Assembly: GCA_963752475.1 (NCBI GenBank)
Contig: CAVVYR010000007.1
Span: forward strand, 384,001 to 448,000
Direction of reading: 5' to 3'
Length of the DNA: 64,000 nt
Source of the DNA: an uncultured Chloroflexia bacterium
Lineage (GTDB): Bacteria; Chloroflexota; Limnocylindria; Limnocylindrales; CSP1-4
Below the pieces are notes generated by a model, which was not told the origin of the DNA, did not search any database, and saw nothing but the letters and a program-made list of their open reading frames with translations. The position numbers and the translations under genes are program-made. The first letter of the stretch is position 1, and the number at the start of each line of letters is the position of its first letter. Positions 38,242 to 60,630 of this stretch are shown piece by piece.

Positions 38242-38582
38242 CGATGCAGATGGTAGAGGGTCGCTCAGGTATGGGTGGTGGTACTGGTCCGCGACCCGCC
38301 GTCGGTCCTGTGTGCGGTCCGTGGTAGTGGTGTGCGGTTCGGGCCGCTGGCGTGGACTCGGCGATCCAACGAGTGGTGACACCCGACACCGCACATGGCC
38401 GATTGGTACTAGTACCGCTTGCCAAAGGTCATGTCGATGGGTGACTATCGGCGACCTGCGGCATAGGCCGTGGATGGCCGGATTCATCCCGGCGTACTTA
38501 TTCACTCCGAGCGGAGTAGGTATCTATCGGCGAACGGGACCCAGAGGCGAAATCGTGGGTCCGAACCGAAGGAGAGGCATCG

Positions 38583-41500
38583 ATGTACTCGACCAAGCGT
38601 CGTGGCAAGGGCACCGCGTTCCTTGCCGTCCTGCAGTCACTACTACTACTGACCGCGCTGGTGCTGGTGCCAGCATCAGCCATCGCCCAGGACGGCCACC
38701 ACTCCCAGGTCGACCTGGCCGAGGACATCGTCAAGGCCAACGCCGATCACCCCAAGGGCAGCCTCGGGGACCGCGGATTCAAGCTCCGCCTCTTCCCCCA
38801 GCAGCCCAAGGTCGCGGTCGGCGGCAAGGTCGTCGTGTCCGCCTGGGTCTGCCCCGGCTGGGACAAGACCCCCTTCGGCGGCCCCAAGGGTGACGGCAAG
38901 CCCGGTGGCGATGACACCTGCAAGCCGATCAAGGCCGAGTGGTCCGTCGAGGGCCCTGCCACGCTCGCCAACCACAAGGCCCTCAAGACCCGCCTCGTGC
39001 TCAATGCCGACGGTGCCGTCCGCCTCACGGCCGAAGTCGATGACCTCAAGCAGTCCACGAAGATCACCGTCAAGGGGACGGCCGCCAAGAACCGCGGCTC
39101 CGATGCCGCCGCGATCGTGAAGAAGGCCGCCCAGAAGGAGGCCAAGGCCGCCAAGGTCAAGGCCCAGAAGGCCGCCGCCAGGCAGGCCGCCGCCGAGCAG
39201 GCCGCGCCGCCGAGCAGGCCGCTGCCGAGCAGGCCGCTGCTGCCCAGGCCGCTGCTGCTGCTGCCAAGCCGGCCGCCCCCGCCGCCGAGCCCGCGCAGGT
39301 CGCCTCTCCTGCCGCCGAGCCCGCCGTCGAAGCGCCCATCATCGAAGAGCCCGCCGCCGAGGAGCCCGCCCAGGCCCCGGTGGAGGAATCCGTCCCGGCC
39401 GAGGAGCCCGCTGAAGAGCCGGCCGCCGAGGAGCCCGAGCCGCCGAGGAGCCTGCGGCCGAGGAGCCCAATGCCGACGAGCCCGAGGCCGAGGAGCCCGC
39501 TGCCGAGGAGCCCATGCCGAAGAGCCCGGCCGCCGAGGAGCCCGCGGCCGAGGAGCCCGCTGAGGCCCCGGCCGCCGAGGAGCCCGCTGCCGAGGAGCCC
39601 GCTGAAGAGCCCGAGCCGACGAGCAGCCCGCTGCCGAGGAGCCTGCTGAAGAGCCCGCCGCCGAGGAGGAGCAGCCCGCTGCCGAGGAGCCAGCGAGCCC
39701 GCCGCCGAGGAGGAGAGCCCGCCGCCGAGGAGGAGAGCCCGCCGCCGAGGAGGAGCAGCCCGCCGCCGAGGAGGAGAGCCCGCCGCCGAGGAGGAGCAGC
39801 CCGCCGCCGAGGAGGAGAGCCCGCCGCCGAGGAGGAGCAGCCCGCCGCCGAGGAGGAGAGCCCGCCGCCGAGGAGGAGCAGCCCGCCGCCGAAGAGCCTG
39901 CCGCCGAGGAGCCTGCTGCCGAGGAGCCCATCGAGGCCCCGGCTGAAGAGCCCGCTGCCGAGGCCCCGGCCGCTGAAGAGCCCGCCGCCAAGGAGCCCAA
40001 GGCTCAGGCTGCAGCTCAGGCCGTCACCGTCCAGGCTGATCCCCTGCAGATCGGAACGGCTGGCCTCACCAGCCTCGCCATCGACGCCAAGCTCGCGAAC
40101 CACACGAGCGCAGAGAACAACGGCGGAAGCAACGCCGAGAACTGCATCCGCTATACCCCGATCCCGAACGCGGCCCCCAACCAGACCGAGACGACCTGGG
40201 TCGATGCCAACAGCAACCCCGACACCGCCTGGACCGCCCACGGTCGGTACACGGTCCCGAACCAGCAGGGATCGGTCTGCCCACCGGACCCGTCCATCAA
40301 TCTGGACGAGCAAAGCTCCATCGGTTTCACGCCCGCTGCCTATGCGCCCAACGATGTCCCCACGGGTAGCCCCTTCCTGCTCGGTAGGTTCACGCATGAC
40401 AACAACGTCATCACCGGTGTTGACAGCCTTTACACGGGTGACCTGAAGATTCGCCTCACCGCCGACAACACGAGCACCCTCACCTACAACTGGGGCTTCA
40501 ACGAGACAAACAACTACCCCAACAGTGGCGTCTGCGAGTTCGGCAACGAGCCGTGCGCGGACAAGACCTGGTTCAACAACACCATCGACGACACGACCAT
40601 CACTAGTGGTGGTATCCCGTACCAGTTGGTGATCATCGGCTTCAGGAGCGACGTTGATGGCAGCTGCCCCGGGACGCCGTCCGGCACTCCCACCGACAAC
40701 TGGTGGACCGCCGAGGACACGACCAGCTACGGCTGCCTGTACGCCGAGCTGACAGAGAAGCGCGCCCTCAAGATCGTCAAGGAGGTCCTCGGCGCTCCGG
40801 CGCCCAACAAGGGCTTCCCCTTCACCTCCAGCAGTTCCTTCGGCACCGACAGCCCGTGGGACAGCAGCAACGGTGGCAAGACGCTCAAGGACGACGGAGT
40901 CAACGACTCCTGGGGTCCGAAGACGTTCCTCTCGACCGAAGAGGACGTGACGATCACCGAGAGCATCCCGAATGGCTGGATCCTCAAGGACGTCGTCTGC
41001 TCGGACAAGTACACGACCTACACCCAGGGCACCCACTACACCCTGAATAAGGGTACGGGCAAGCTCGTCCTGAACAACATCCCCGAGTCCAACAAGGCAG
41101 ACGCGCTGATGGTGACGTGTACCTTCAAGAACGAGCGCGATAGTGGCACCATCATCGTCAAGAAGAAGGCCGTCCCGGACGACGGTACGCCCTTCACGTT
41201 CGATCCGTCATGGAACAGCGAGCCGAACTTCAACCTGTTCCACAACGACAGCAAGACCTTCACCGACCTGCCCGCTGGCGTGGAGTACTCGGTCTCCGAG
41301 ATCAACATCCCCACCCACTGGGTCCTGACCAAGGTGGAGTGCAAGCAGGGCGAGCAGGTCCTGGCCGACGAGAACGGCGAGGCCTTCGAGCTGAAGCCCG
41401 GCGAGACCGTCACCTGCACCTTCACCAACAAGAAGGCCAGCATCGACATCGAGAAGGCCACCAACGGCGCCGACGCCGACAGCCCCACCGGACCCTTCAT

Positions 41501-44500
41501 CGCGGTGGGCAACCCGGTCAACTGGACCTATGAGGTCGAGAACACCGGCAACGTCGCGCTCACCAACGTGTCCGTCACCGACGACCAGGGTGTGACGGTG
41601 ACCTGCCCGCAGGACACGCTCGCCGCCGGCGAGTCGATGACCTGCACCGCCAACGGCACGGCCACGGCCGGCCAGTACGACAACCTCGGCACCGCCACCG
41701 GCACCCCGCCGGCCGGCCCGCCCGTCGACGATGAGTACCGAGCCACTACTTCGGCGCGGACGCCAGCATCGACATCGAGAAGGCCACCAACGGCGCCGAC
41801 GCCGACAGCCCCACCGGACCCTTCATCGCGGTGGGTGACCCGGTCAACTGGACCTATGAGGTCGAGAACACCGGCAACGTCGCGCTCACCAACGTGTCCG
41901 TCACCGACGACCAGGGTGTGACGGTGACCTGCCCGCAGGACACGCTCGCCGCCGGCGAGTCGATGACCTGCACCGCCAACGGCACGGCCACGGCCGGCCA
42001 GTACGACAACCTCGGCACCGCCACCGGCACCCCGCCGGCCGGCCCGCCCGTCGACGATGAGGATCCGAGCCACTACTTCGGCGCGGACGCCAGCATCGAC
42101 ATCGAGAAGGCCACCAACGGCGCCGACGCCGACAGCCCCACCGGACCCTTCATCGCGGTGGGTGACCCGGTCAACTGGACCTATGAGGTCGAGAACACCG
42201 GCAACGTCGCGCTCACCAACGTGTCCGTCACCGACGACCAGGGTGTGACGGTGACCTGCCCGCAGGACACGCTCGCCGCCGGCGAGTCGATGACCTGCAC
42301 CGCCAACGGCACGGCCACGGCCGGCCAGTACGACAACCTCGGCACCGCCACCGGCACCCCGCCGGCCGGCCCGCCCGTCGACGATGAGGATCCGAGCCAC
42401 TACTTCGGCGCGGACGCCAGCATCGACATCGAGAAGGCCACCAACGGCGCCGACGCCGACAGCCCCACCGGACCCTTCATCGCGGTGGGTGACCCGGTCA
42501 ACTGGGAATACGAGGTCACCAACGACGGCAACGTCGACCTCACCGACGTGGAGGTCACCGACAGCGACGTGGCCGCCAGCGCCATCGACTGCGGTGCTCC
42601 CGACAACGACAACGTCATCGAGAGCCTGGCGGTGGGCCAGACCGTGACCTGTGAGGCCACGGGCACGGCCACGGCCGGCCAGTACGACAACCTCGGCACC
42701 GCCACCGGCACCCCGCCGGCCGGCCCGCCCGTCGACGATGAGGATCCGAGCCACTACTTCGGCGCGGACGCCAGCATCGACATCGAGAAGGCCACCAACG
42801 GCGCCGACGCCGACAGCCCCACCGGACCCTTCATCGCGGTGGGTGCCACGGTCACCTGGGAATACGAGGTCACCAACGACGGCAACGTCGACCTCACCGA
42901 CGTGGAGGTCACCGACAGCGACGTGGCCGCCAGCGCCATCGACTGCGGTGCTCCCGACAACGACAACGTCATCGAGAGCCTGGCGGTGGGCCAGACCGTG
43001 ACCTGTGAGGCCACGGGCACGGCCACGGCCGGCCAGTACGACAACCTCGGCACCGCCACCGGCACCCCGCCGGCCGGCCCGCCCGTCGACGATGAGGATC
43101 CGAGCCACTACTTCGGCGCGGACGCCAGCATCGACATCGAGAAGGCCACCAACGGCGCCGACGCCGACAGCCCCACCGGACCCTTCATCGCGGTGGGCAA
43201 CCCGGTCAACTGGACCTATGAGGTCGAGAACACCGGCAACGTCGCGCTCACCAACGTGTCCGTCACCGACGACCAGGGTGTGACGGTGACCTGCCCGCAG
43301 GACACGCTCGCCGCCGGCGAGTCGATGACCTGCACCGCCAACGGCACGGCCACGGCCGGCCAGTACGACAACCTCGGCACCGCCACCGGCACCCCGCCGG
43401 CCGGCCCGCCCGTCGACGATGAGGATCCGAGCCACTACTTCGGCGCGGACGCCAGCATCGACATCGAGAAGGCCACCAACGGCGCCGACGCCGACAGCCC
43501 CACCGGACCCTTCATCGCGGTGGGTGACCCGGTCAACTGGACCTATGAGGTCGAGAACACCGGCAACGTCGCGCTCACCAACGTGTCCGTCACCGACGAC
43601 CAGGGTGTGACGGTGACCTGCCCGCAGGACACGCTCGCCGCCGGCGAGTCGATGACCTGCACCGCCAACGGCACGGCCACGGCCGGCCAGTACGACAACC
43701 TCGGCACCGCCACCGGCACCCCGCCGGCCGGCCCGCCCGTCGACGATGAGGATCCGAGCCACTACTTCGGCGCGGACGCCAGCATCGACATCGAGAAGGC
43801 CACCAACGGCGCCGACGCCGACAGCCCCACCGGACCCTTCATCGCGGTGGGTGACCCGGTCAACTGGGAATACGAGGTCACCAACGACGGCAACGTCGAC
43901 CTCACCGACGTGGAGGTCACCGACAGCGACGTGGCCGCCAGCGCCATCGACTGCGGTGCTCCCGACAACGACAACGTCATCGAGAGCCTGGCGGTGGGCC
44001 AGACCGTGACCTGTGAGGCCACGGGCACGGCCACGGCCGGCCAGTACGACAACCTCGGCACCGCCACCGGCACCCCGCCGGCCGGCCCGCCCGTCGACGA
44101 TGAGGATCCGAGCCACTACTTCGGCGCGGACGCCAGCATCGACATCGAGAAGGCCACCAACGGCGCCGACGCCGACAGCCCCACCGGACCCTTCATCGCG
44201 GTGGGCAACCCGGTCAACTGGACCTATGAGGTCGAGAACACCGGCAACGTCGCGCTCACCAACGTGTCCGTCACCGACGACCAGGGTGTGACGGTGACCT
44301 GCCCGCAGGACACGCTCGCCGCCGGCGAGTCGATGACCTGCACCGCCAACGGCACGGCCACGGCCGGCCAGTACGACAACCTCGGCACCGCCACCGGCAC
44401 CCCGCCGGCCGGCCCGCCCGTCGACGATGAGGATCCGAGCCACTACTTCGGCGCGGACGCCAGCATCGACATCGAGAAGGCCACCAACGGCGCCGACGCC

Positions 44501-46682
44501 GACAGCCCCACCGGACCCTTCATCGCGGTGGGTGACCCGGTCAACTGGACCTATGAGGTCGAGAACACCGGCAACGTCGCGCTCACCAACGTGTCCGTCA
44601 CCGACGACCAGGGTGTGACGGTGACCTGCCCGCAGGACACGCTCGCCGCCGGCGAGTCGATGACCTGCACCGCCAACGGCACGGCCACGGCCGGCCAGTA
44701 CGACAACCTCGGCACCGCCACCGGCACCCCGCCGGCCGGCCCGCCCGTCGACGATGAGGATCCGAGCCACTACTTCGGCGCGGACGCCAGCATCGACATC
44801 GAGAAGGCCACCAACGGCGCCGACGCCGACAGCCCCACCGGACCCTTCATCGCGGTGGGCAGCACCGTCAACTGGACCTATGAGGTCGAGAACACCGGCA
44901 ACGTCGCGCTCACCAACGTGTCCGTCACCGACGACCAGGGTGTGACGGTGACCTGCCCGCAGGACACGCTCGCCGCCGGCGAGTCGATGACCTGCACCGC
45001 CAACGGCACGGCCACGGCCGGCCAGTACGACAACCTCGGCACCGCCACCGGCACCCCGCCGGCCGGCCCGCCCGTCGACGATGAGGATCCGAGCCACTAC
45101 TTCGGCGCGGACGCCAGCATCGACATCGAGAAGGCCACCAACGGCGCCGACGCCGACAGCCCCACCGGACCCTTCATCGCGGTGGGTGACCCGGTCAACT
45201 GGACCTATGAGGTCGAGAACACCGGCAACGTCGCGCTCACCAACGTGTCCGTCACCGACGACCAGGGTGTGACGGTGACCTGCCCGCAGGACACGCTCGC
45301 CGCCGGCGAGTCGATGACCTGCACCGCCAACGGCACGGCCACGGCCGGCCAGTACGACAACCTCGGCACCGCCACCGGCACCCCGCCGGCCGGCCCGCCC
45401 GTCGACGATGACGATCCGAGCCACTACTTCGGCGCGGACGCCAGCATCGACATCGAGAAGGCCACCAACGGCGCCGACGCCGACAGCCCCACCGGACCCT
45501 TCATCGCGGTGGGCAGCACCGTCAACTGGGCCTACATCGTCACCAACACCGGCAACGTCGCCCTGAGCGACGTGACCGTCACCGACGACGAGCTGGCCCC
45601 CACTGATATCGTGTGCGACGGCTCCGACGACAACGTCATCCCGTCCCTGTTGCCGGGCGCCAGTGCGAACTGCGCGGCCACCGGCACCGCCGTGGCCGGC
45701 CAGTACGACAACATCGGCACCGCCACCGGCACCCCGCCGGCCGGCGACCCGCCGACCGATGACCGATCCGAGCCACTACTTCGGTGCCGTGCCCGGCATC
45801 GACATCCAGAAGGCCACCAACGGCCAGGACGCCGACGCCCCGACCGGACCGGTCGTGGCCGTGGGTGATCCCATCACCTGGACCTACGTGGTCACCAACA
45901 CCGGCAACGTCGCCCTGAGCGACGTGACCGTCACCGACAACAAGCTTGCCGCCAGCGCCATCGCGTGCGACGGCAGTGGCACCAACGTCATCGCGTCCCT
46001 GGCGCCGAAGGCGTCCGTGACCTGCAAGGCCACGGGTACCGCCGTCGCGGGCCAGTACGCCAACACGGGCTCCGCCACCGGCACGCCGCCGGAGGGTGAG
46101 CCACCGGCGGACTCCGACCCGAGCCACTACTTCGGTGCCGCTCCCGGCATCGACATCGAGAAGTCCACCAATGGCTTCGACGCCGACAACCCGACGGGTC
46201 CGGGCGTGCAGGTCGGTGAGTCCATCACCTGGACCTATGAGGTCACCAACACCGGCAACGTCACGCTCACCGGCGTGACCGTCACCGACGACCAGGGTGT
46301 GGTGGTCTCCTGTCCGAAGAGCACGCTCGTCGCCGGCGAGTCGATGACCTGCACCGCGAGCGGTACGGCCACGGCCGGCCAGTACGTCAACACCGGCACC
46401 GCCACCGGCACCCCGCCGGTCGGCGTGGCCCCGAGCGACAGCGACAAGAGCCACTACTTCGGCATCGAGGTCGAGGTCGAGTCCACCCCGCTCCCGACCG
46501 AGTCCCTGAAGCCCACGGACATGCTGTTCACGACCGACACCATCGGTCCGGCCGATGACGGCGATCCCATGGGTGCCCTGTTCAACTGGGCCCTCTGGCT
46601 CGCGCTCAGTGCGCTGCTCATCGTGGGCACCGCCGCGATCATCCGCCGCGAGCGCTACGCGGAGGTCAAGACCCGCCGCTAG
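38583..46682 (+). CDS. Giant surface adhesin-like protein copy 1 (15 Ig-like DUF11/DUF7507-type repeats), several apparent frameshifts
   Basis: Signal peptide; shared N-terminal domain; Ala/Glu/Pro stalk; THDN-containing domain; two SpaA/prealbumin-like domains (CTFKN, CTFTN); repeats; C-terminal TM plus basic tail. Frame breaks near 39200-39900, 41735, 45762. Confidence 0.85.
41436..46460 (+). repeat. 15 coding tandem units of 327 bp (type A) or about 350 bp (types B-E)
   Basis: Units start near 41436, 41762, 42089, 42416, 42770, 43124, 43451, 43778, 44132, 44459, 44786, 45113, 45440, 45795, 46146. Confidence 0.93.
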
Positions 46683-46713
46683 CACCCACGGTCGATCCCA
46701 GACCGCATCCACC

Positions 46714-46755
46714 ACGAAGGCCGGGCTCGGAGAGGGGCCCGGCCTTCGTCTCTGT
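46714..46755 (+). terminator. Terminator hairpin after adhesin copy 1
   Basis: ACGAAGGCCGGGCTC...GGGCCCGGCCTTCGT-CTCTGT. Confidence 0.75.
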
Positions 46756-47071
46756 CCGGCCCGGGGTCGGAGGAGGGAGCTACGGGCGGCGGACAGTCGC
46801 CGTCTGCGGTGCATGCCGGGCTGTGAAGAACGGTGAGGTCGCGCCTCGCCACGACGTTGTGGAACGGTGCTAGTGCGCACCGCATATGGCCGATTGGTAC
46901 TAGGACCGCTTGCCAAAGGTCATGGCGAGAGTGAGACTTAGCCTTCGCGGCTCAGGCCGTGGATGGCCGGATTCATCCCGGCGTACTTATTCACTCCGAG
47001 CGGAGTAGGTATCTATCGGCGAACGGGACCCAGAGGCGAAATCGTGGGTCCGAACCGAAGGAGAGGCATCG

Positions 47072-50000
47072 ATGTACTCGACCAAGCGTCGTGGCAAGGG
47101 CACCGCGTTCCTTGCCGTCCTGCAGTCACTACTACTACTGACCGCGCTGGTGCTGGTGCCAGCATCAGCCATCGCCCAGGACGGCCACCACTCCCAGGTC
47201 GACCTGGCCGAGGACATCGTCAAGGCCAACGCCGATCACCCCAAGGGCAGCCTCGGGGACCGCGGATTCAAGCTCCGCCTGTTCCCCCAGCAGCCCAAGG
47301 TCGCGGTCGGCGGCAAGGTCGTCGTGTCCGCCTGGGTCTGCCCCGGCTGGGACAAGACCCCCTTCGGCGGCCCCAAGGGTGACGGCAAGCCCGGTGGCGA
47401 TGACACCTGCAAGCCGATCAAGGCCGAGTGGTCCGTCGAGGGCCCTGCCACGCTCGCCAACCACAAGGCCCTCAAGACCCGCCTCGTGCTCAATGCCGAC
47501 GGTGCCGTCCGCCTCACGGCCGAAGTCGATGACCTCAAGCAGTCCACGAAGATCACCGTCAAGGGGACGGCCGCCAAGAACCGCGGCTCCGATGCCGCCG
47601 CGATCGTGAAGAAGGCCGCCCAGAAGGAGGCCAAGGCCGCCAAGGTCAAGGCCCAGAAGGCCGCCGCCAGGCAGGCCGCCGCCAGGCAGGCCGCTGCCGC
47701 CGAGCAGGCCGCTGCTGAGCAGGCCGCTGCTGCCCAGGCCGCTGCTGCTGCTGCCAAGCCGGCCGCCCCCGCCGCCGAGCCCGCGCAGGTCGCCTCTCCT
47801 GCTGCCGAGCCCGCCGTCGAAGCACCCATCAACGAAGAGCCCGCCGCCGAGGAGCCCGCCCAGGCCCCGGTGGAGGACTCCGTCCCGGCCGAGGAGCCTG
47901 CTGAAGCGCCGGCCGCCGAAGAGCCCAAGAGCGAAGAGCCTGCGGCCGACGAGCCCAAGGCCGACGAGCCCAAGGCCGAAGAGCCTGCGGCCGAGGAGCC
48001 CAAGGCCGACGAGCCCAAGGCCGAAGAGCCTGCGGCCGAGGAGCCCGCAGAGGCCCCGGTGGAGGAATCTGTCCCTGAGGCTCCCGCCGAAGAGCCCAAG
48101 AACGAGCAGCCCGCCGCCGAGGAGGAGCAGCCCGCCGCCGAGGAGGAGCAGCCCGCCGCCGAGGAGAGCAGGGCCGCCGAGCAGCCCGCCGCCGAGGAGG
48201 AGCAGCCCGCCGCCGAGGAGGAGCAGCCCGCCGCCGAGGAGGAGCAGCCCGCCGCCGAGGAGGAGCAGCCCGCCGCCGAGGAGGAGCAGCCCGCCGCCGA
48301 GGAGGAGCAGCCCGCCGCCGAGGAGGAGCAGCCCGCCGCCGAGGAGGAGCAGCCCGCCGCCGAGGAGGAGCAGCCCGCCGCCGAGGAGGAGCAGCCCGCC
48401 GCCGAGGAGGAGCAGCCCGCCGCCGAGGAGGAGCAGCCCGCCGCCGAGGAGGAGCAGCCCGCCGCCGAGGAGGAGCAGCCCGCCGCCGAAGAGCCTGCCG
48501 CCGAGGAGCCTGCTGCCGAGGAGCCCATCGAGGCCCCGGCTGAAGAGCCCGCTGCCGAGGCCCCGGCCGCTGAAGAGCCCGCCGCCAAGGAGCCCAAGGC
48601 TCAGGCTGCAGCTCAGGCCGTCACCGTCCAGGCTGATCCCCTGCAGATCGGAACGGCTGGCCTCACCAGCCTCGCCATCGACGCCAAGCTCGCGAACCAC
48701 ACGAGCGCAGAGAACAACGGCGGAAGCAACGCCGAGAACTGCATCCGCTATACCCCGATCCCGAACGCGGCCCCCAACCAGACCGAGACGACCTGGGTCG
48801 ATGCCAACAGCAACCCCGACACCGCCTGGACCGCCCACGGTCGGTACACGGTCCCGAACCAGCAGGGATCGGTCTGCCCACCGGACCCGTCCATCAATCT
48901 GGACGAGCAAAGCTCCATCGGTTTCACGCCCGCTGCCTATGCGCCCAACGATGTCCCCACGGGTAGCCCCTTCCTGCTCGGTAGGTTCACGCATGACAAC
49001 AACGTCATCACCGGTGTTGACAGCCTTTACACGGGTGACCTGAAGATTCGCCTCACCGCCGACAACACGAGCACCCTCACCTACAACTGGGGCTTCAACG
49101 AGACAAACAACTACCCCAACAGTGGCGTCTGCGAGTTCGGCAACGAGCCGTGCGCGGACAAGACCTGGTTCAACAACACCATCGACGACACGACCATCAC
49201 TAGTGGTGGTATCCCGTACCAGTTGGTGATCATCGGCTTCAGGAGCGACGTTGATGGCAGCTGCCCCGGGACGCCGTCCGGCACTCCCACCGACAACTGG
49301 TGGACCGCCGAGGACACGACCAGCTACGGCTGCCTGTACGCCGAGCTGACAGAGAAGCGCGCCCTCAAGATCGTCAAGGAGGTCCTCGGCGCTCCGGCGC
49401 CCAACAAGGGCTTCCCCTTCACCTCCAGCAGTTCCTTCGGCACCGACAGCCCGTGGGACAGCAGCAACGGTGGCAAGACGCTCAAGGACGACGGAGTCAA
49501 CGACTCCTGGGGTCCGAAGACGTTCCTCTCGACCGAAGAGGACGTGACGATCACCGAGAGCATCCCGAATGGCTGGATCCTCAAGGACGTCGTCTGCTCG
49601 GACAAGTACACGACCTACACCCAGGGCACCCACTACACCCTGAATAAGGGTACGGGCAAGCTCGTCCTGAACAACATCCCCGAGTCCAACAAGGCAGACG
49701 CGCTGATGGTGACGTGTACCTTCAAGAACGAGCGCGATAGTGGCACCATCATCGTCAAGAAGAAGGCCGTCCCGGACGACGGTACGCCCTTCACGTTCGA
49801 TCCGTCATGGAACAGCGAGCCGAACTTCAACCTGTTCCACAACGACAGCAAGACCTTCACCGACCTGCCCGCTGGCGTGGAGTACTCGGTCTCCGAGATC
49901 AACATCCCCACCCACTGGGTCCTGACCAAGGTGGAGTGCAAGCAGGGCGAGCAGGTCCTGGCCGACGAGAACGGCGAGGCCTTCGAGCTGAAGCCCGGCG

Positions 50001-53000
50001 AGACCGTCACCTGCACCTTCACCAACAAGAAGGCCAGCATCGACATCGAGAAGGCCACCAACGGCGCCGACGCCGACAGCCCCACCGGACCCTTCATCGC
50101 GGTGGGCAACCCGGTCAACTGGACCTATGAGGTCGAGAACACCGGCAACGTCGCGCTCACCAACGTGTCCGTCACCGACGACCAGGGTGTGACGGTGACC
50201 TGCCCGCAGGACACGCTCGCCGCCGGCGAGTCGATGACCTGCACCGCCAACGGCACGGCCACGGCCGGCCAGTACGACAACCTCGGCACCGCCACCGGCA
50301 CCCCGCCGGCCGGCCCGCCCGTCGACGATGAGGACCCGAGCCACTACTTCGGCGCGGACGCCAGCATCGACATCGAGAAGGCCACCAACGGCGCCGACGC
50401 CGACAGCCCCACCGGACCCTTCATCGCGGTGGGTGACCCGGTCAACTGGACCTATGAGGTCGAGAACACCGGCAACGTCGCGCTCACCAACGTGTCCGTC
50501 ACCGACGACCAGGGTGTGACGGTGACCTGCCCGCAGGACACGCTCGCCGCCGGCGAGTCGATGACCTGCACCGCCAACGGCACGGCCACGGCCGGCCAGT
50601 ACGACAACCTCGGCACCGCCACCGGCACCCCGCCGGCCGGCCCGCCCGTCGACGATGAGGATCCGAGCCACTACTTCGGCGCGGACGCCAGCATCGACAT
50701 CGAGAAGGCCACCAACGGCGCCGACGCCGACAGCCCCACCGGACCCTTCATCGCGGTGGGTGACCCGGTCAACTGGACCTATGAGGTCGAGAACACCGGC
50801 AACGTCGCGCTCACCAACGTGTCCGTCACCGACGACCAGGGTGTGACGGTGACCTGCCCGCAGGACACGCTCGCCGCCGGCGAGTCGATGACCTGCACCG
50901 CCAACGGCACGGCCACGGCCGGCCAGTACGACAACCTCGGCACCGCCACCGGCACCCCGCCGGCCGGCCCGCCCGTCGACGATGAGGATCCGAGCCACTA
51001 CTTCGGCGCGGACGCCAGCATCGACATCGAGAAGGCCACCAACGGCGCCGACGCCGACAGCCCCACCGGACCCTTCATCGCGGTGGGTGACCCGGTCAAC
51101 TGGACCTATGAGGTCGAGAACACCGGCAACGTCGCGCTCACCAACGTGTCCGTCACCGACGACCAGGGTGTGACGGTGACCTGCCCGCAGGACACGCTCG
51201 CCGCCGGCGAGTCGATGACCTGCACCGCCAACGGCACGGCCACGGCCGGCCAGTACGACAACCTCGGCACCGCCACCGGCACCCCGCCGGCCGGCCCGCC
51301 CGTCGACGATGAGGATCCGAGCCACTACTTCGGCGCGGACGCCAGCATCGACATCGAGAAGGCCACCAACGGCGCCGACGCCGACAGCCCCACCGGACCC
51401 TTCATCGCGGTGGGTGACCCGGTCAACTGGACCTATGAGGTCGAGAACACCGGCAACGTCGCGCTCACCAACGTGTCCGTCACCGACGACCAGGGTGTGA
51501 CGGTGACCTGCCCGCAGGACACGCTCGCCGCCGGCGAGTCGATGACCTGCACCGCCAACGGCACGGCCACGGCCGGCCAGTACGACAACCTCGGCACCGC
51601 CACCGGCACCCCGCCGGCCGGCCCGCCCGTCGACGATGAGGATCCGAGCCACTACTTCGGCGCGGACGCCAGCATCGACATCGAGAAGGCCACCAACGGC
51701 GCCGACGCCGACAGCCCCACCGGACCCTTCATCGCGGTGGGTGACCCGGTCAACTGGACCTATGAGGTCGAGAACACCGGCAACGTCGCGCTCACCAACG
51801 TGTCCGTCACCGACGACCAGGGTGTGACGGTGACCTGCCCGCAGGACACGCTCGCCGCCGGCGAGTCGATGACCTGCACCGCCAACGGCACGGCCACGGC
51901 CGGCCAGTACGACAACCTCGGCACCGCCACCGGCACCCCGCCGGCCGGCCCGCCCGTCGACGATGAGGATCCGAGCCACTACTTCGGCGCGGACGCCAGC
52001 ATCGACATCGAGAAGTCCACCAACGGCAGTGACGCCGACACGCCCGACCGGACCCTTCATCGCCGTCGGCAGCACCGTCAACTGGGCCTACATCGTCACC
52101 AACACCGGCAACGTCGTCCTGAACGACGTGACCGTCACCGACGACAAGCTCGCCGACAGCGCCATCGACTGCGGCGACGGCACCAACGTCATCGCGTCCC
52201 TGCTGCCGGGCGCCAGTGCGAACTGCACGGCCACCGGCACCGCCGAGGCCGGCCAGTACGCCAACACCGGCTCCGTCATCGGCACCCCGCCCGGCGAGGG
52301 CGAGCCGCCGACCGACACCGATCCGAGCCACTACTTCGGTGCCGTGCCCGGCATCGACATCGAGAAGGCCACCAACGGCCAGGACGCCGACGCCCCGACC
52401 GGACCGGTCGTGGCCGTGGGTGATCCCATCACCTGGACCTACGTGGTCACCAACACCGGCAACGTCGCCCTGAGCGACGTGACCGTCACCGACAACAAGC
52501 TCGCCGCCAGCGCCATCGTGTGCGACGGCAGTGGCACCAACGTCATCGCGTCCCTGGCGCCGAACGCGTCCGTGACCTGCACGGCCACGGGCACCGCCGT
52601 CGCGGGCCAGTACGCCAACACGGGCTCGGCCACCGGCACGCCGCCCGAGGGCGAGCCAGCCGGCGGACTCCGACCCGAGCCACTACTTCGGTGCCGCTCC
52701 CGGCATCGACATCGAGAAGCTCACCAACGGCTTCGACGCCGACAACCCGACCGGTCCGGGCGTGCAGGTCGGTGAGCCCATCACCTGGACCTATGAGGTC
52801 ACCAACACCGGCAACGTCACGCTCACCGGCGTGACCGTCACCGACGACCAGGGTGTGGTGGTCTCCTGTCCGAAGAGCACGCTCGTCGCCGGCGAATCGA
52901 TGACCTGTACCGCGAGCGGTACGGCCACGGCCGGCCAGTACGTCAACACCGGCACCGCCACCGGCACCCCGCCGGTCGGCGTGGCCCCGAGCGACAGCGA

Positions 53001-53238
53001 CAAGAGCCACTACTTCGGCATCGAGGTCGAGGTCGAGTCCACCCCGCTCCCGACCGAGTCCCTGAAGCCCACGGACATGCTGTTCACGACCGACACCATC
53101 GGTCCGGCCGATGACGGCGATCCCATGGGTGCCCTGTTCAACTGGGCCCTCTGGCTCGCGCTCAGCGCGCTGCTCATCGTGGGCACCGCCGCGATCATCC
53201 GCCGCGAGCGCTACGCGGAGGTCAAGACCCGCCGCTAG
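47072..53238 (+). CDS. Giant surface adhesin-like protein copy 2 (9 Ig-like repeats), frameshifts near 52045 and 52658
   Basis: ORFs 47072..52423, 51963..52775 and 52762..53238 join into the same architecture as copy 1; AAGGAGAGG RBS. Confidence 0.9.
48104..48490 (+). repeat. 21-bp coding VNTR (EQPAAEE, about 18 units)
   Basis: GAGCAGCCCGCCGCCGAGGAG iterated; shorter degenerate counterpart at ~39650-39890. Confidence 0.93.
50033..53016 (+). repeat. 9 coding tandem units (six 327-bp type A plus three divergent terminal units)
   Basis: 327-bp periodicity seen in shadow ORFs at 50328, 50655, 50982, 51309, 51636, 51963. Confidence 0.93.
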
Positions 53239-53269
53239 CACCCACGGTCGATCCCAGACCGCATCCACC

Positions 53270-53311
53270 ACGAAGGCCGGGCTCGGAGAGGGGCCCGGCC
53301 TTCGTCTCTGT
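53270..53311. terminator. Terminator hairpin between adhesin copy 2 and the convergent sortase-like gene
   Basis: Same hairpin as 46714-46755. Confidence 0.75.
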
Positions 53312-53338
53312 CCGGCGCCTGGCGGTCGGGGGAGGGAG

Positions 53339-54207
53339 CTACGGGCGGCGGACGATGTAGACGGCTACGACGGTGGCGCCGAGAAGGATCGCGCCACTGC
53401 CGAGTACCAGCGCCATGGCGTCGAGCTCCTCTTGGGGCTCGGTCACCGGCGCGGCCGTCGCCGCTGCCTGCCGGTTCGCGTTGTTGCTCGCGTTCCTGTT
53501 CTTGTTGCCCTTGGCCTTCGCTGTCGGTGCCGGGGGCGGCTGCCAGCAGGCACGTGGCTTGGGCCTCCGGCCGTGGCTCGTCGGTCCACGCAGCATCGAT
53601 GAGCCGGCCCGCGACCATCAGGCGTGGCGAGGCGCCGGTCGTGCCGGTGCTCGTCTGGAGCACGACCCGTTGCTGGCGCTCATTCGGTCGGTCCGCGATG
53701 TCGTAGTCGAAGGCCACGTCGACCTCGGAGATGCGGTAGGTCAGGAGTCGGCCGTCGCGCAGCTGCAGCTTGATGAGCTTGCCCATCAGCTCGGTCCGCC
53801 CGGACGCGAAGTAGCTCTCGGTCAGGGGCAGGAGCATGCCCGGTTGGGCGTGACCGTAGAGCCAGGCCGTCCCGGGCTGCCCCGGCAGCACCAGCTCCTG
53901 CTCCCTGGAGGTCAGGTACTGGGCCACATCGCAGAGCGGATAGCCGGCGGGGTTGCCGGCGACCTTCCGCCCTTCCCACACGACCGGCAGGTCGATGTCG
54001 AAGTAGGGGACTCGTACGCGTACTGGCCGCGAGCCCTCGTCGAGAGGCACCGGCCGGGCCGTGGGAGTGGTGGGGTCTTCCTGGGCGGCCGCATCGGATC
54101 CCGGGAGTCCGAGCGTCAGCATGCACGGCAAGACCGAGCGTGGACACGACCGTGAGGATCCGCCGCGCGCTCGACGCTGTGGCTGCTGACCGAGGGAAGG
54201 TGAGCAT
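53339..54207 (-). CDS. Sortase-fold protein (class F-like) with Ser at the catalytic Cys position, frameshifts near 54120 and 53565
   Basis: PVRVRVPYFDIDLPVV, PGQPGTAWLYGHA, DGRLLTYRI, VVLQTSTG...PRLMVAG; N-terminal hydrophobic segment; C-terminal TM plus RRP. Confidence 0.75.
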
Positions 54208-54420
54208 CGCCAGACGCTAGCACTCCATCGAGGTTCGCTCACCGGGCCGGCTGACGGTCAGATGCCGGTACTTCCGCCTTCTGGCTGCTCCGGTCTGTTC
54301 GCGTAGGGCAGTCTCGGTCGGCAGGCGGCCTCGCGCCGCCGCGTGGTGACAACTGTCAACGCTCGCTATACTCACCGCGGACCCGCGTCAAGTCGTCGTG
54401 GCGCAGCGGAGGGAGATCGC

Positions 54421-55500
54421 TTGCAGGACCCTGCCCAGCGGATGGATACGCGTCCGCGCGTGGCAGTCATCGAGGATGATGCCGCGGTCAGACGTGTCCT
54501 GAGCCGCATCCTTGATGACGCCGGCTATGCCGTCATCGCCGCCCCCGACGGTGAGCTCGGCCTGCGCGTGGTCAAGGAGCACCACCCGGACATGCTCATC
54601 CTCGACCTGACCTTGCCACGCATGGACGGCCTCGAGATCTGCCGCCGGCTGCGTGCCGACAGCCGCACCGTGGCGCTGCCCATCATCGTCCTTACCGCGC
54701 ACACTTCGACCAGCGACATGGTGGCCGCGCTCGATGCCGGCGCCGACGACTTCGTGACCAAGCCCTTCCAGCAGGTCGAGCTCCTGGCGCGCCTGCGCAG
54801 CTCGTTCCGCACGCGTGAGGTCATCCGCCGCATGGAGCAGGCGCACGACATCGTCGTGGCCCTGGCCAACGCGGTCGAAGCCAAGGACCTCGGGCTCAAG
54901 GATCACTGCCGCTACCTGGCCTACCGCTCCGCGCGCCTCGCCGCCTACGTCGGCCTGCGGGACGGCGAGCTGGAGGGCGTGGCCTACGGCGCGCTGCTCC
55001 ACGACATCGGCAAGATCGGCATCAGCGAGCACGTGTTGCACAAGCCCGGGCCGCTCACCGACGACGAGTTCCGCGTCATGCGCGAACACCCCGAGATCGG
55101 CGAGCGCATCTGCGATCCGTTGCGCATGTCGCGCGACTTCACACCCATCATCCGCCACCACCACGAGCGCTGGGACGGTACGGGCTACCCCGACGGCCTG
55201 AAGGGGGAGGCCATCCCGCTCGGAGCCCGTATCGTGGCCCTCGCCGATGCCTTCGACGCCATCGTCCGCGGCCGCCCGTACCGCGCCGCCCGCACGGTCG
55301 AGGAAGCGTTCGATGAGCTGCGCAAGCACTCGGGGGGCCAGTTCGACCCGGGCCTGGTTCCGCTCTTCATCGAAGAGACGGACCGTGATGGCGCCGGCAT
55401 CGCCCCCAGCGTGGAGTTGCCGCGCGTGGCCCTGTTGGCCCAGGAAGCGCCGATCGTGACGGGCGCGCCAAGTGGAGCCGCGCCCGCCCGCGTCGCCTGA
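54421..55500 (+). CDS. Response regulator with HD-GYP phosphodiesterase domain (RpfG-like)
   Basis: Receiver IEDD/ILDLTLP/FVTKPF; LLHDIGKIG; HHERWDGTGYP; DAFDA...RPY; start TTG 54421 or ATG 54442. Confidence 0.95.
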   Translation: MQDPAQRMDTRPRVAVIEDDAAVRRVLSRILDDAGYAVIAAPDGELGLRVVKEHHPDMLILDLTLPRMDGLEICRRLRADSRTVALPIIVLTAHTSTSDMVAALDAGADDFVTKPFQQVELLARLRSSFRTREVIRRMEQAHDIVVALANAVEAKDLGLKDHCRYLAYRSARLAAYVGLRDGELEGVAYGALLHDIGKIGISEHVLHKPGPLTDDEFRVMREHPEIGERICDPLRMSRDFTPIIRHHHERWDGTGYPDGLKGEAIPLGARIVALADAFDAIVRGRPYRAARTVEEAFDELRKHSGGQFDPGLVPLFIEETDRDGAGIAPSVELPRVALLAQEAPIVTGAPSGAAPARVA

Positions 55501-55525
55501 CCCGTCGCGCTCGGAAGCGAGCCGG

Positions 55526-56311
55526 ATGACCGACACCCAGCTTCCGCCAAGCCGCATCCGCTACCACGCGGTCCGGCTCGTGCTGAAGGCCGTGACCAGC
55601 GCCTACGTGCGCACCCGTGTGGTCGGCGCCGAGCGTATCCCCGAGTCGGGCCCGTACATCATCTGCTTCAACCACCCTTCGTGGCTGGACCCGGTCTTCT
55701 TCGCGGCCTACTGGCCCGACCCCGATCGCGACCTCTACATCTTCGGGCCGCGCGAACAGGACATGAGCACTGGCGTGCGCAATGCGCTCATCACCTGGAC
55801 CCGCCGCGGCGTGCCCTTCCAGCCCGAGGCCCAGGACGTCGTCGACACCACCCGTCGTGCGGTGGGGGTGCTCAGGACCGGCGCCTGCCTGGCCATCGCG
55901 GGGGAGGGGCGCTTGAGCGACCACGAAGGCCGCATCCTTCCGCTGGAGACGGGCCTCGCGCACTTCGCCAAGATGGCCACGGCCCCGATCCTGCCCGTTG
56001 CCGTCATCGGGACCCGCTGGATCTCGTTCGGCAGCCGGGTGACACTGCGCGTCGGAGAGGCCGTCTACCCCGATGACTACGCCGGCGGCAGGTCTGGCGC
56101 TCGCGACATGACCGACGAGGTCGAACGTCGTCTCGGGGCCCTGCTGGAGGGCGTCGAGGAGCGCGAACCGCCCGGCTGGCTGGGACGCACCATCTCAGAG
56201 GCTTTCAACGACCGACCCTGGCTGGACGAGGAGCCCGGACGGAGCGCTAGTCGGCGGCTACCTGCGCTTGTCGAGGACCACGATGGCGTCGAGCCAGACG
56301 GTCGTGCCTGA
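55526..56311 (+). CDS. Lysophospholipid acyltransferase (PlsC family)
   Basis: NHPSWLD, AGEGR, PILPV; true stop may be near 56250. Confidence 0.88.
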   Translation: MTDTQLPPSRIRYHAVRLVLKAVTSAYVRTRVVGAERIPESGPYIICFNHPSWLDPVFFAAYWPDPDRDLYIFGPREQDMSTGVRNALITWTRRGVPFQPEAQDVVDTTRRAVGVLRTGACLAIAGEGRLSDHEGRILPLETGLAHFAKMATAPILPVAVIGTRWISFGSRVTLRVGEAVYPDDYAGGRSGARDMTDEVERRLGALLEGVEEREPPGWLGRTISEAFNDRPWLDEEPGRSASRRLPALVEDHDGVEPDGRA

Positions 56312-59300
56312 CGGACTTGCCACTCGCCGTGCCGGTCGCACGGAGTTTGACCACGTGCTTGCCCTTCGAGACATTGCGCACGTAGACGATGCGCCGGTCA
56401 TCGGGCTCGGCTGGCGTAGAGGTCGATGGTGTCGACGTGCTTGCCGTCCACGATGACCTTGACGCGACCACCGGTCGGCCCACGGCGGACGACGACCGCG
56501 AACTGCTGGCCCTTGAACGAGACCTTCGCCTGTGCGCCCCGTCGAGGACGTCCGTGCGAGGCGTCTTTCCGAGCGCGTCCTTGTTCCTCGTCGCCTTCCA
56601 CGAACCGCGGAGCTTCACGTTCTTCGAGCTGCGACGGCAGATCGATGGTCCGCAGCTTGGGGCTGATCGACTTCCTGCTGGTCGTTTCCGGCGACGGTCC
56701 TTCGCGGGGCCGTGGACCGAGCAGCCCGCTCGGGCCACGGGGGCGCCGGCGGTCACGAGAGGACCCTTGCCGGTCTTGGTGGCCATGACCTTGCGGCCAC
56801 AGATGACTCGGACCGCCGCGTTCTTCAGCCCTGAGCGCCCGTCCTTGGCGCTGATCGTGGCCTTGATCGGCACGCGCTTGCCGGACGCGGCCACGCGGCC
56901 GCCCTGGCGGATGCTGAGGCGCGGGCGGGTCAGCTTCGGCTTCGTCTTGTCGAGCTTGATGCCGTCGCGCAGGATCGGCGACTTGACCTTGTTCGGAGCG
57001 CGCAGCTGCATGCGCACGTCGTAGTTGCCCTGGCGCCGGCCGAGCTTGACGTTGAACCGCTTCTTGTAGGGCATCCACTTGGTGAACTTGCCCTTGCCGA
57101 CGGCGTAGCGCACCTGGACCCCGTCGAATCCGCGCAGGTCGGCCTGCACGGTCCTCGATCCCGGTCCAGGCCGCGCCCTTCTTGAGCTTCATCTGCCGCG
57201 AGAGCTCCAGGTTCAGCTGGCCCAGGCCGGCCGAGTACACGTTCCCGTCGAGCTTGACGCCGCCGTCGAACCTGGCGAGGCCCCACTGCCAGAACGTCCA
57301 GTCGCTCCAGCCGTTCGGCAGGATCATCGTGTCGCACTCCCAGCAGGCGACCCAGAGCGGGTAGGTGCCGAAGCCGCCCGGCGCGCCGACCACCTTCTCC
57401 CACATGTAGCGGCTGGTGTAGATCATCGGATACCGGCCGGTCTGCCGATAGAGCTCGTCGAGCATGGCGTGGAGGCGTGCCTTGGCCTGGGCCTTGTTGG
57501 GGGTCCCGAGCGACGTGAGCGTCTCGACGTCGACCACCAGCGGCAGCAGCCGGTTGAGCCCGCTGGTCTTGCGCACGATCGACAGGAAGTGCTGCGCCTG
57601 TTTCGTGCCGTCGACCCGGTAGTCGAAGAAGTGGTAGGCCCCGGCGAGCAGGCCTGCAGCGCGTGCGTCGGAGGTGTGCTGCTGGAACGTGTTGTCGACG
57701 AACGACGTGCCCTGGGTCGCCTTGGAGAAGACGAAGCGCTGGTCCTGGGCTCGGAGCGCCTTGAAGTCGGGCAGGCCGTTCCAGTGGCTCACGTCCAGCC
57801 CCAGGATGCCATCCGGGGTGGACCAGGGCGGCGGCTCCGGCGTCGGCGTCGGCGTCGGTTCTGGCTCGACGATGTAGCCATCTCCGTCGGGTCCGGTGTC
57901 GTCGCCGGGCGGGGTGTCCTCGACGTCCGCGACGCCGAAGGCAGCCGCCAAGTCGAGACGCCCGATGGCCATGTTCGTGGCAGCGGCGCTCGTCGAGAGC
58001 CGGCCGGCAACGTTGTTCGAGGTGATCCCGTCGGCGATCAGCAGGGCGGCAGCGCCGGCGACCTGAGCCGCGGCGGCCGAGGTGCCCCTGATCGTGCGGT
58101 TGGTGCCGCCGGGGTTCAGCGCCGTGATGTCCACGCCCGGCGCCGCGATGTAGGCGCTTGGACCGTCGTCGCTCCAGAGCGCCACCACGTCGTCCTTCCG
58201 CGTGGCGGCGACGCCGATGACGCCGGGGTACGCCGCCGGATAGGTCGGCGTGGTCACACCTTCGTTGCCCACGGACGCCACCACGACGATGCCGGCGGCC
58301 ATCGCGAGGTCGATCTGGTCCTTGAGTGCAGTCGACCTGTTCGGACCGCTGAACGCCATGAGGATGACGTCGACGTTCGCTGCCATGGCTGTGCCGATCG
58401 CGGCGATGATGTCCGCGTCGTAGCCCACACCGTCGGCACCGATAGCCGTGATCGGCAGGACCGAGACATTGGTCCAGGCGACACCGGCAATGTCCCGTGC
58501 GTTGTTCGTGTTCGCGGCCATGATGGTGGCCATCCACGTGCCGTGGCCGTGAGGGTCGCTGCTCGTACCGATAGCCTTGCCGGCAAGGTCCTCGAGCGCG
58601 GTATCGACGCCCGTGTCGATGATCGCCACAGTGGCGCTGCTACTGAATGTCTTGACTCCGTGCAGGGCCTCCCAGCCGATGTGTGGGAGGTGCCACTGGT
58701 TCTCGTAGAGCGGGTCGTTGGAAGCAGCGTTGACGGTCCGGGCGTAGTTGCGATCGACACTCCTGACGGCGGGATCGGCCTTGAGGCGATCGATGACCTT
58801 GGCGCGGTCCTTCCTGGGGACGTCAACGACCTGCATGTCGAGCCGGCCGATGGCCTTGTCGTTGCCGGCTCCTGCGGTCGTGATGGCGCCTGCTCGCTTG
58901 GCGTTTCCGGTGCCGGACTTGAAAGTGACGATGTACTCGTCGGTCGGACCGAGGTCGGCTGTCGAGGGCGTGCTCTGAGGCTCCGGCGTAGGCTCGCCAC
59001 TGGGCTGCGGGGTCCCCGGCTCTGGCGTCGGCGCGGGCTGTGCTTCTGGGGTCGTCGTCACCGTTTCGACCACATCCGGCTCCTCCGACGGGTCGTCTTC
59101 GGGTTCGACGGTCCCCGATTCGATCGTGGGCTCCGGTTCGTCGGGCGCGGCCGACGCCACTTCCGGCTCGACCGACGCTTCGGGCGTGTCGGGACCGGCC
59201 GATGCCGCTTCCGGCTCGACCGTTTCGGTCACGGCTGCCGATGCCGTCGGCTTCGGCTCGTCGGGAACCGCTGGCACCTCGGTGCCTGGCGCCACGGCAG

Positions 59301-60477
59301 CGAGGCCTTCGTCGCCCGGTTCCTCGGTAGCGGGCTCTGCGGTGGTGGTCTCCTCGGCCAGGGGCTCCTCGCTCGGCTCCGCGGTCGGTCCTTCGGTTTC
59401 GGACTCCTCGGCCCTCGGCGTCTCGGCCGCAGGGTCCGTGCTGGGCTCCTCGGTCGCAGATGCCTCGGGCGCAGTCTCCACGGGTTCCTCAGCAGCGGGC
59501 TCCTTCGGCAGGGGCTCGTCAGCGGCCGGGGCGGCGGCAGCGGCAGCAGCTTCGGCGGTGCTCGCGGCCTTGGCGGCAGCGGCAGCGGCCTTGGCGGCCT
59601 GCTCGGCGGCGGCCTGCCTGGCGGCGGCCTTCTGGGCCTTGACCTTGGCGGCCTTGGCCTCCTTCTGGGCGGCCTTCTTCACGATCGCGGCGGCATCGGA
59701 GCCGCGGTTCTTGGCGGCCGTCTCCTTGACGGTGATCTTCGTGGACTGCTTGAGGTCATCGACTTCGGCCGTGAGGCGGACGGCACCGTCGGCATTGAGC
59801 ACGAGGCGGGTCTTGAGGGCCTTGTGGTTGGCGAGCGTGGCAGGGCCCTCGACGGACCACTCGGCCTTGATCGGCTTGCAGGTGTCATCGCCACCGGGCT
59901 TGCCGTCACCCTTGGGGCCGCCGAAGGGGGTCTTGTCCCAGCCGGGGCAGACCCAGGCGGACACGACGACCTTGCCGCCGACCGCGACCTTGGGCTGCTG
60001 GGGGAAGAGGCGGAGCTTGAATCCGCGGTCCCCGAGGCTGCCCTTGGGGTGATCGGCGTTGGCCTTGACGATGTCCTCGGCCAGGTCGACCTGGGAGTGG
60101 TGGCCGTCCTGGGCGAGCAGGGGCGCGAAGCCTGTGCTGCCTGCCACGAGGACGAGGGACACGAGCAGGGCCATGAACGCGTGGACTCGCGGCGTACGCA
60201 GCCACCGCCGAGCCTCGCGCAAGCGGGAAGCCCGTCCTCGACCAACCTGCGGCGTCTCGATGTGAGTCCGATCAGGGGGTGCTCCGTGCGGCGTCTCGCC
60301 GGTGCCTTCGCCACGGAGCGCCTGGTGCGCCAAGGCCACATCGGAGGCTCGGGGCACGCGCCGACCCGAGGCAGGCTGAAGCGGAGCCTCGGAGGCGTGG
60401 GACAGCGAGCGCGACACGCGCGTGGGCAACAAGCATGCCCTCCCTTCGGTCCAGCCCTCAGGGTCACGGCTGGGCAT
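56258..60477 (-). CDS. Secreted multidomain protein: shared N-terminal domain, Glu/Pro stalk, S8 subtilase, GH25 muramidase, C-terminal beta domain; frameshifts in the last 900 bp
   Basis: IIDTG, HGHGT, GNEG, GTSAA; GLDVSHWNG, KATQG, AYHFF, VVDVE, PMIYT, FWQW; reconstructed end TVWLDAIVVLDKRR*; start uncertain (60477, ~60432 or 60174). Confidence 0.87.
59594..60115 (-). repeat. Inverted third copy of the ~520-bp N-terminal cassette (others at 38684-39200 and 47173-47690)
   Basis: Encodes AQDGHHSQVDLAEDIVK...KAAARQAAAEQAA in all three genes. Confidence 0.95.
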
Positions 60478-60630
60478 CGACGGCGAGTGTACGACACCTT
60501 GTCGTGTTTCACACCCGGCGTGCTCGTGGCTGCACCTGCCGCTGTTGACTCAGCGCACCAGCCGGATCAGCGCCGCGCGCAAGCACTCGCGCGCGGCGCG
60601 CCACTCCACGCACCGGCTACCATGCCTCTC

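Follow-up and report, generated by a model that had tools for sequence, protein, structure and literature searches.

The 64,000-nucleotide window of an uncultured Chloroflexia bacterium that we analysed carries three near-identical copies of a 523-bp N-terminal cassette, two of them in tandem adhesin genes (A and B) and the third, in the opposite orientation, in a gene that fuses an S8 subtilase to a GH25 muramidase (C). Our results lead us to think that this inverted repeat is probably the scar of a recent, one-way ectopic gene conversion in which the adhesin cassette replaced a paralogous domain of C. The features concerned are these:

38387-46794, plus strand: duplication unit A, made up of promoter-like block, adhesin gene A and terminator hairpin (BLASTN of A against B, segment identity)
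38387-38582, plus strand: conserved promoter-like block and leader before A (alignment with 10 relatives, genome pattern scan)
38583-46682, plus strand: gene A, sortase-linked adhesin, frame disrupted by 1-bp indels
38683-39205, plus strand: cassette copy A, 523 bp, with the Ig-like domain at 38766-39071
46795-46877, plus strand: unique spacer at the A-B junction, seen in contigs of the public runs X1-X4
46878-47071, plus strand: matching promoter-like block before B, same pattern as before A
47072-53238, plus strand: gene B, which repeats A in tandem but has a smaller number of stalk repeats (BLASTN, segment identity)
47172-47694, plus strand: cassette copy B, with the Ig-like domain at 47255-47560
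56250-60432, minus strand: gene C, S8 subtilase-GH25 fusion; start (TTG near 60432) and end approximate
59324-59593, minus strand: first ~90 residues of the C linker, acidic and adhesin-like though diverged, perhaps left over from an earlier, longer transfer
59594-60116, minus strand: cassette copy C, the putative converted tract, with the Ig-like domain at 59728-60033
60117-60493, minus strand: ancestral upstream region belonging to C itself, orthologous to the leader that relatives have on the GH25 gene

Gene C keeps an ancestral promoter block and leader but carries the adhesin domain, and copying therefore likely went from the adhesin to C. The recipient can be recognised by its leader and S8-GH25 body, which are orthologous to those of three relatives whose domain in this place is 31-43% identical to that of their own adhesin, and C's ancestor likely carried a paralogous domain of its own at the same position. 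The donor keeps its sequence, as in a non-reciprocal exchange: A, B and two further proteins, P0004 (from another assembly) and P0154 (the adhesin of a near relative), all carry the adhesin-type cassette.

The shared cassette and its carriers

A repeat search of the window returned two pairs of inverted 523-nt arms, 38683-39205 against 59594-60116 (separated by 20,388 nt) and 47172-47694 against 59594-60116 (separated by 11,899 nt), and BLASTN found three full copies in the 4.25-Mb assembly, every one inside the window. Between copies A and C a single position in 523 is changed; it lies in a Gly/Glu codon (GGG/GAG) that tracks gene type, with Gly in A and B and Glu in C, while the private changes of copy B are one synonymous substitution at 47281 and two differences at 47684-47685. 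Identity between C and the adhesins starts 5 nt upstream of the Q codon in A-QD. The tract of ~174 codons comprises an acidic N-terminal stretch, a two-Cys domain of ~102 amino acids (aa) and a basic Ala/Lys stretch; it is basic overall, whereas the adjoining linker is very acidic. Near identity within one genome, flanked by an unrelated leader and a diverged linker, is the pattern by which gene conversion would be recognised. No close relative of the cassette was found in JGI metagenome contigs or in GTDB genome contigs.

These results bear on an original prediction made from the letters of the window. Its near-identical ~520-bp N-terminal cassette in three genes, one inverted, and its placing of the start of identity with the third gene at the A-QD signal-peptidase site are both confirmed, and the further cassette copies that it proposed to count amount to none beyond these three. 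Its tally of one Gly/Glu and one synonymous change was correct for both but missed the differences at 47684-47685, its two-Cys domain of ~130 aa is in fact ~102 aa within the longer tract, and its claim that the bodies differ completely holds for C and fails for A against B, which are a whole-gene tandem duplication. The alternative that it offered, a module kept uniform by gene conversion, fits our findings, to which the relatives add a direction from adhesin to hydrolase.

Gene C reads, in order, an extended leader of ~107 aa ending in a signal peptide, the cassette, an acidic linker, the S8 subtilase (Asp 58623, His 58551, Ser 58086), the GH25 muramidase (57810 to ~57235) and a basic C-terminal region disrupted by indels. 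Its upstream region contains a CGTACACT box at 60493-60486, GGAGGGCA at 60443-60436, a PRASDVAL motif and the signal peptide, and the box, the motif and the signal peptide are orthologous to those of the three fused relatives. The C leader is 40% identical over 81 aa and 49% over 67 aa to orthologous leaders, as against a 12-aa local match to the adhesin leader. Throughout the GH25-gene family, in fused and stand-alone forms, an extended leader of ~100 aa carries the conserved PRASDVAL before the signal peptide (60117-60432 here). The C linker has a net charge of -48, compared with the basic linkers of two orthologues (+8 and +16). Alignment of its first 90 residues with adhesin linkers scores above 300 of 300 shuffles, and those residues do not align to the linkers of C orthologues. 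Judged from these alignments, the start of the linker probably came by an older, longer transfer that preceded the fresh conversion. The C body itself was found in metagenomes at only 3 distant loci and, in the protein collection at E 1e-100, only as the window's own protein among the top 7,993 candidates scored; GH25 orthologues 70-81% identical occur in Chloroflexia, Anaerolineae or Candidatus Limnocylindrales records.

Gene A encodes a 35-aa signal peptide, the cassette, an acidic Pro/Glu/Ala linker, a choice-of-anchor-K head, SpaA-like domains, DUF7507/DUF11 repeats and a membrane tail. Together A and B form a tandem duplication of the whole gene with its promoter (38387-46794 and 46878-53353), and their identity is patchy, with 19 substitutions in the first 98 aligned bases followed by 1 in 700, 10-24% substitutions in the linker and none in the head region (1,876 aligned bases). 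The junction between them is present in contigs of all four public runs, and one 744-nt contig is ~93-94% identical across it, so that the duplication is likely older than the identity of the two coding regions. This pattern is compatible with repeated homogenisation of A and B, and it is likely that these tandem adhesins, too, homogenise each other in patches by gene conversion. No other species showed such homogenisation of the domain between genes. Stalk repeats of 327 and 354 bp fill 41400-46460 and 50000-53000, many of them 99-100% identical, and differ in number and order between A and B. Two tandem adhesin genes were also observed in two relatives, at the loci L033 (G034:C6) and L048-L049 (G065:C6), the domains of the latter being 62% identical.

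The block upstream of the adhesins has the pattern ACACC..ATGGCC....GGTACT, and the leader has a Shine-Dalgarno-like GGAGAGG. A sigma-70 scan found no promoter before A, so the label "promoter" rests on sequence conservation. The 170-nt adhesin leader is conserved, and those of A and B, with folding z scores of -3.4 and -1.9, differ chiefly in one hairpin (38434-38464). A riboswitch-like reading of this leader was dropped, as the consensus fold of 12 sequences was weak (-5.8 kcal/mol) with no favourable covariation term, and Rfam gave no match in 36000-64000 at E 1.

Two related proteins place the adhesin cassette in a wider context. P0004 has the same signal peptide, cassette, linker and tail as the adhesin on a VWA-SpaA body, which shows that strains exchange bodies at the adhesin locus. 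P0154 has the adhesin signal peptide, a cassette that is 77% identical and, as in C, Glu at the variable codon, and the Gly of A and B thus likely arose after the last exchange with C.

Locus history and the direction of copying

For the syntenic locus we used 20 genomes of the genus; a single contig spans both flanks in 16 of them, and the GH25 gene was seen in 19. The locus has a fixed order (M14 peptidase, adhesin, sortase, HD-response regulator, acyltransferase, GH25 gene) and a fixed orientation, which is that of the window in all of those 16 relatives. In 20/20 loci the domain heads the mature form of the syntenic adhesin, on variable bodies. Before GH25 it is found, together with S8, in 3 of 19 loci (G005, G067 and G009), just after the A-Q-D codons, and it is absent there from the other 16; the five stand-alone GH25 genes whose starts were read consist of leader, signal peptide, Pro/Thr linker and GH25. 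A helix-turn-helix-like gene of ~220 aa lies upstream of the C orthologue in the same three fused relatives (L045, L046 and L031) and does not occur in the window.

In those fused relatives the C-type domain shares 31%, 32% and 43% of its residues with the adhesin domain of the same genome, and the C-type domains are 57-86% identical among themselves. The C domain of the window is 53% identical to the adhesin domains of three relatives and 40-46% to the C-type domains, and in the tree it groups with adhesin domains (90/86) and not with those of C type. Seven domain matches were found in the window's genome, with no close C-type domain among them. Within-genome comparisons in 12 relatives gave 35 domain pairs. 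In 34 of them identity is 55-68% and no exact run exceeds 16 nt, and the lone identical pair comes from a tandem repeat within a single reading frame; since no pair between separate genes is identical, the identity is special to this genome among those examined.

We propose that RecA-type strand invasion would have started in the short homology shared at A-Q-D, and that copying may have ended in the low-complexity Ala/Lys/Gln repeats, in frame and without a crossover, after an older, longer transfer had probably brought the start of the acidic linker into C. RecA is encoded in the genome, and in principle it might also, if rarely, invert the DNA between the arms (12 or 20 kb), as a by-product and not as a programmed switch. 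We regard the case as a real and well-resolved capture of a domain, specific to this lineage, between secreted proteins that are otherwise unrelated, with donor, recipient, ancestral state and 5' breakpoint readable from relatives. It also suggests that incoming sequence can enter in frame at the conserved A-Q-D codons of the signal-peptide junction, and did so once, with the insertion of Ig plus S8 into the GH25 gene, and again with the swap of the Ig domain.

Three neighbouring genes complete the locus:

53235-54242, minus strand: sortase-fold gene (Pfam Sortase, E 2.7e-6), which would fall inside an inverted segment
54343-55500, plus strand: response regulator receiver with HD domain (domain search)
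55472-56311, plus strand: acyltransferase (domain search)

Sortases normally carry a TLxTC motif. The sortase-fold protein has LQTS at the place of this motif, and LQTSTG was read in 6/6 relatives checked. At one locus (L055, G024:C4:93620-94160) the sortase gene lies on the adhesin's strand, opposite to the other syntenic loci. GC skew along contig C7, on which the window lies, gave no clear signal, and the run containing most sampled words of the window comes from freshwater sediment, as a metagenome; 16 runs that shared few of the words were left out of this habitat reading. Our literature search found nothing joining Limnocylindr- organisms with adhesins.

Elsewhere in the assembly, contig C6 of G000 carries a 650-bp direct repeat that is 100% identical (419579-420228 and 424981-425630, 5.4 kb apart). 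From C6:753198 onward, and on C2 and C3, a second large surface protein has a diverged copy of the domain; its linker and body are not the same on these alternative contigs, which indicates variation between strains. The look-alike genes on C6, C2 and C3 were considered as a second cassette system and rejected, as they are alternative contigs of one locus, 97.7-99.4% identical over 9-20 kb.

Other explanations for the identical copies

Selection on the protein could also keep the copies alike, if the hydrolase had been given, and keeps, the adhesin's exact domain because identity matters, for example in docking on the adhesin or in binding the same envelope ligand; wall remodelling would then occur where the adhesin is displayed. 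The tract does start at the predicted cleavage site and span the whole folded domain with its basic stretch, the domain has its constant place in all 20 syntenic adhesins while bodies vary, and the adjoining linker has diverged where the cassette has not. However, synonymous sites are identical too and the sole A-C difference is non-synonymous, which argues for DNA copying rather than protein-level selection, and neither the relatives, three of which have a diverged domain on C and 16 none before GH25, nor the drift of the cassette to 77% identity in P0154 agrees with a demand for identity, so that we regard this explanation as unlikely. An assembly or polishing artefact, with copies collapsed or mis-joined in an error-prone, strain-mixed long-read bin, has to be considered because the assembly (4.25 Mb, 38 contigs, 88.8% complete) has 5.83% contamination, alternative contigs of the same loci and many 1-bp indels. 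Such indels disrupt the frames of A, B and C and are likely long-read errors, since X1 contigs lack three such bases in C's tail, and polishing could explain the identity of A and B over 1.9 kb. Yet all three copies lie deep inside a 672-kb contig and have private differences, the A-B junction recurs in the contigs of four public runs, and a 520-nt X1 contig covers the C leader with one difference and continues through the first 24 bases of the cassette. Moreover, the DNA of the ancestral C-type domain is only ~55-61% identical to that of adhesin domains, too distant for a polisher to overwrite. In X1 contigs the depth rises from ~6 on C's unique flanks to 12.5 on the leader shared by A and B and reaches 18-25 over part of the cassette. 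We consider an artefact very improbable.

The original prediction had offered first a possible switch reminiscent of the Campylobacter fetus sap genes. In the form considered here, crossover by RecA within the 523-bp arms would, with no dedicated recombinase, flip 12 or 20 kb and let the adhesin and S8-GH25 bodies trade promoters and leaders in frame. The arms are indeed identical, inverted and in frame, RecA is present, and what would be traded is a 35-aa signal peptide against the ~107-aa extended leader; the upstream regions of the adhesins and of C are unrelated, so a swap would change regulation, and surface genes do vary in the population, as P0004 illustrates. If true, such a switch would couple attachment to wall remodelling in a sub-population of a free-living Chloroflexota bacterium. 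The relatives and the gene structure speak otherwise. A, B and C each appear to keep a conserved promoter-like block of their own, by which none looks like a silent cassette, and these blocks, as we read them, all lie outside the B-C segment; a flip between B and C would leave the second adhesin copy with the promoter that it has now. The orientation of the window is the ancestral one, identical arms between genes occur in no relative (divergence among relatives being an outcome that the prediction had itself named as telling against it), and the Gly/Glu marker sorts by gene type. The bin has alternative contigs for other variable loci, yet none with a swapped junction, and the two other proteins of this cassette type, P0004 and P0154, have the adhesin signal peptide, P0004 also the adhesin linker. 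The serine resolvase/invertase family PF00239 had 0 matches in the genome at its 88.8% completeness, and the matches to PF00589 (tyrosine type, 3), PF07508 (large-serine type, 1, weak) and PF02371 (IS110-family, 8) all fall outside contig C7, in agreement with the earlier observation that the window encodes no recombinase. Palindromic stems near the cassette 5' ends are only 7 bp long, and none was seen near the 3' ends, in a scan made without a control. Joints listed in X1 contigs, with sides of 20-37 letters, were set aside as other organisms or repeats. Indirect as these arguments are, we find the proposed switch unsupported and think it quite improbable that it is active; we hold it to be just as doubtful that conversion has created a young, recombinase-free RecA switch toggling adhesin and protease-muramidase between two promoters and leaders.

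One-way conversion from adhesin to C thus remains our preferred explanation, and several points weigh against it. Its direction appears to depend mainly on leader orthology and percent identity, because the tree branches that give it are not starred (90/86 and 90/91) and the one-clade test, an approximately unbiased test (p-AU 0.365) with identical rows left free, is uninformative. Alignments of periodic, low-complexity linkers beat shuffles easily, which makes the linker test weak. At the 5' junction of C, the 24 cassette bases of the X1 contig fall below the 31-base bridging rule, and X1 is possibly the sample from which the window came; the public runs were examined as contigs, which cannot phase a 523-bp repeat, and two cassette bins stand at depths of 9.0 and 12.7, summed contig depth not being copy number. 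A search for a second assembly of this species with gene C found none, for which reason one event and repeated conversion are indistinguishable and the tract is undatable. Finally, a binding role of the domain is deduced from its fold and charge only (30 K+R against 18 D+E).

The cassette domain and known recombining surface genes

The model predicted for the cassette domain is a seven-strand beta sandwich (predicted local distance difference test score, pLDDT, 90.7) whose best structural match is Leptospira LigA (Z 10.0, root-mean-square deviation 2.7, 82 aligned), followed by SbsC (8.7) and Big_2-CBM56 (8.4). Foldseek returned nothing at E 0.001 for the domain, its best hit having E 0.002, Big_2 clusters occur among its Atlas look-alikes, and 2 of 24 domain members match Big_2 in Pfam (best E 0.0005). 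The copy in the window matches no Pfam family at E 0.1 and lies below the gathering cut-off of Big_2 (PF02368). The predicted model thus suggests a Big_2-like Ig fold, which qualifies the earlier description of the domain as unrecognised, a description that still holds for the window copy as far as Pfam is concerned. What the domain shares with Big_2, as represented by LigA, domains 4-5 of SbsC and Big_2-CBM56, is the Ig-like beta sandwich of its predicted model; it differs in an insert of ~25 residues, which carries a PG-x-DD motif and is framed by two invariant Cys, and in its confinement to one genus among those searched. A profile built from 24 copies found it in 23 of 49 genomes of the genus, and at E 1e-8 it was present in 3 of 301 genomes drawn from the class (16 candidates scored per genome), all 3 of this genus. 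Adhesins and S8 proteases carry it N-terminally, other proteins C-terminally, and it thus behaves as a Big_2 module would while falling short of the Pfam cut-off. Most likely, to go by the model, the domain serves secreted proteins as an interchangeable Ig module that is basic, stands at the start of the mature chain and binds the envelope or acts as a spacer, and these data define a genus-restricted, Big_2-like subfamily outside every Pfam model.

Gene conversion between surface-protein genes is well known as a process, the conversion proposed here belongs with that of the Helicobacter pylori bab genes, and three systems invite comparison. Among the sap genes of Campylobacter fetus, a single promoter lies within the invertible DNA, and the cassettes other than the one at the promoter are promoterless or silent. 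According to the parts of the published accounts available to us, this system has 8-9 cassettes whose inversion relocates the promoter (PMC3971579), and it resembles the window in having near-identical 5' regions in opposed surface-protein genes with divergent bodies (PMC3971579, PMC1950947, PMC5634654). Unlike it, the window has two bodies, a promoter-like block for each gene and differing signal peptides, and the identity occurs in no relative; two different bodies, with no identical arms in 20 syntenic loci, do not make a sap-type array. In the vpma/Xer1 system of Mycoplasma agalactiae, to the extent covered by the portion of the source at hand, inverted surface-protein genes can likewise exchange their 5' parts, but this system uses short recombination sites and a dedicated recombinase (PMC5634654), in contrast to 523 bp of homology and no recombinase on the contig.

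The babA, babB and babC genes of Helicobacter pylori, as presented in the sections of PMC4552749 available to us, are paralogous adhesin genes that exchange 5' segments by intragenomic recombination, which yields chimeric genes. These paralogues are alike along their length, whereas donor and recipient here, an adhesin and a protease-muramidase, share one domain only, and the copied part is a mature N-terminal domain rather than a phase-variable CT tract, in one genome of a non-pathogen. As in the window, the bab genes occupy separate loci with upstream regions of their own, and no dedicated recombinase is invoked in those sections for their exchange (PMC4552749).

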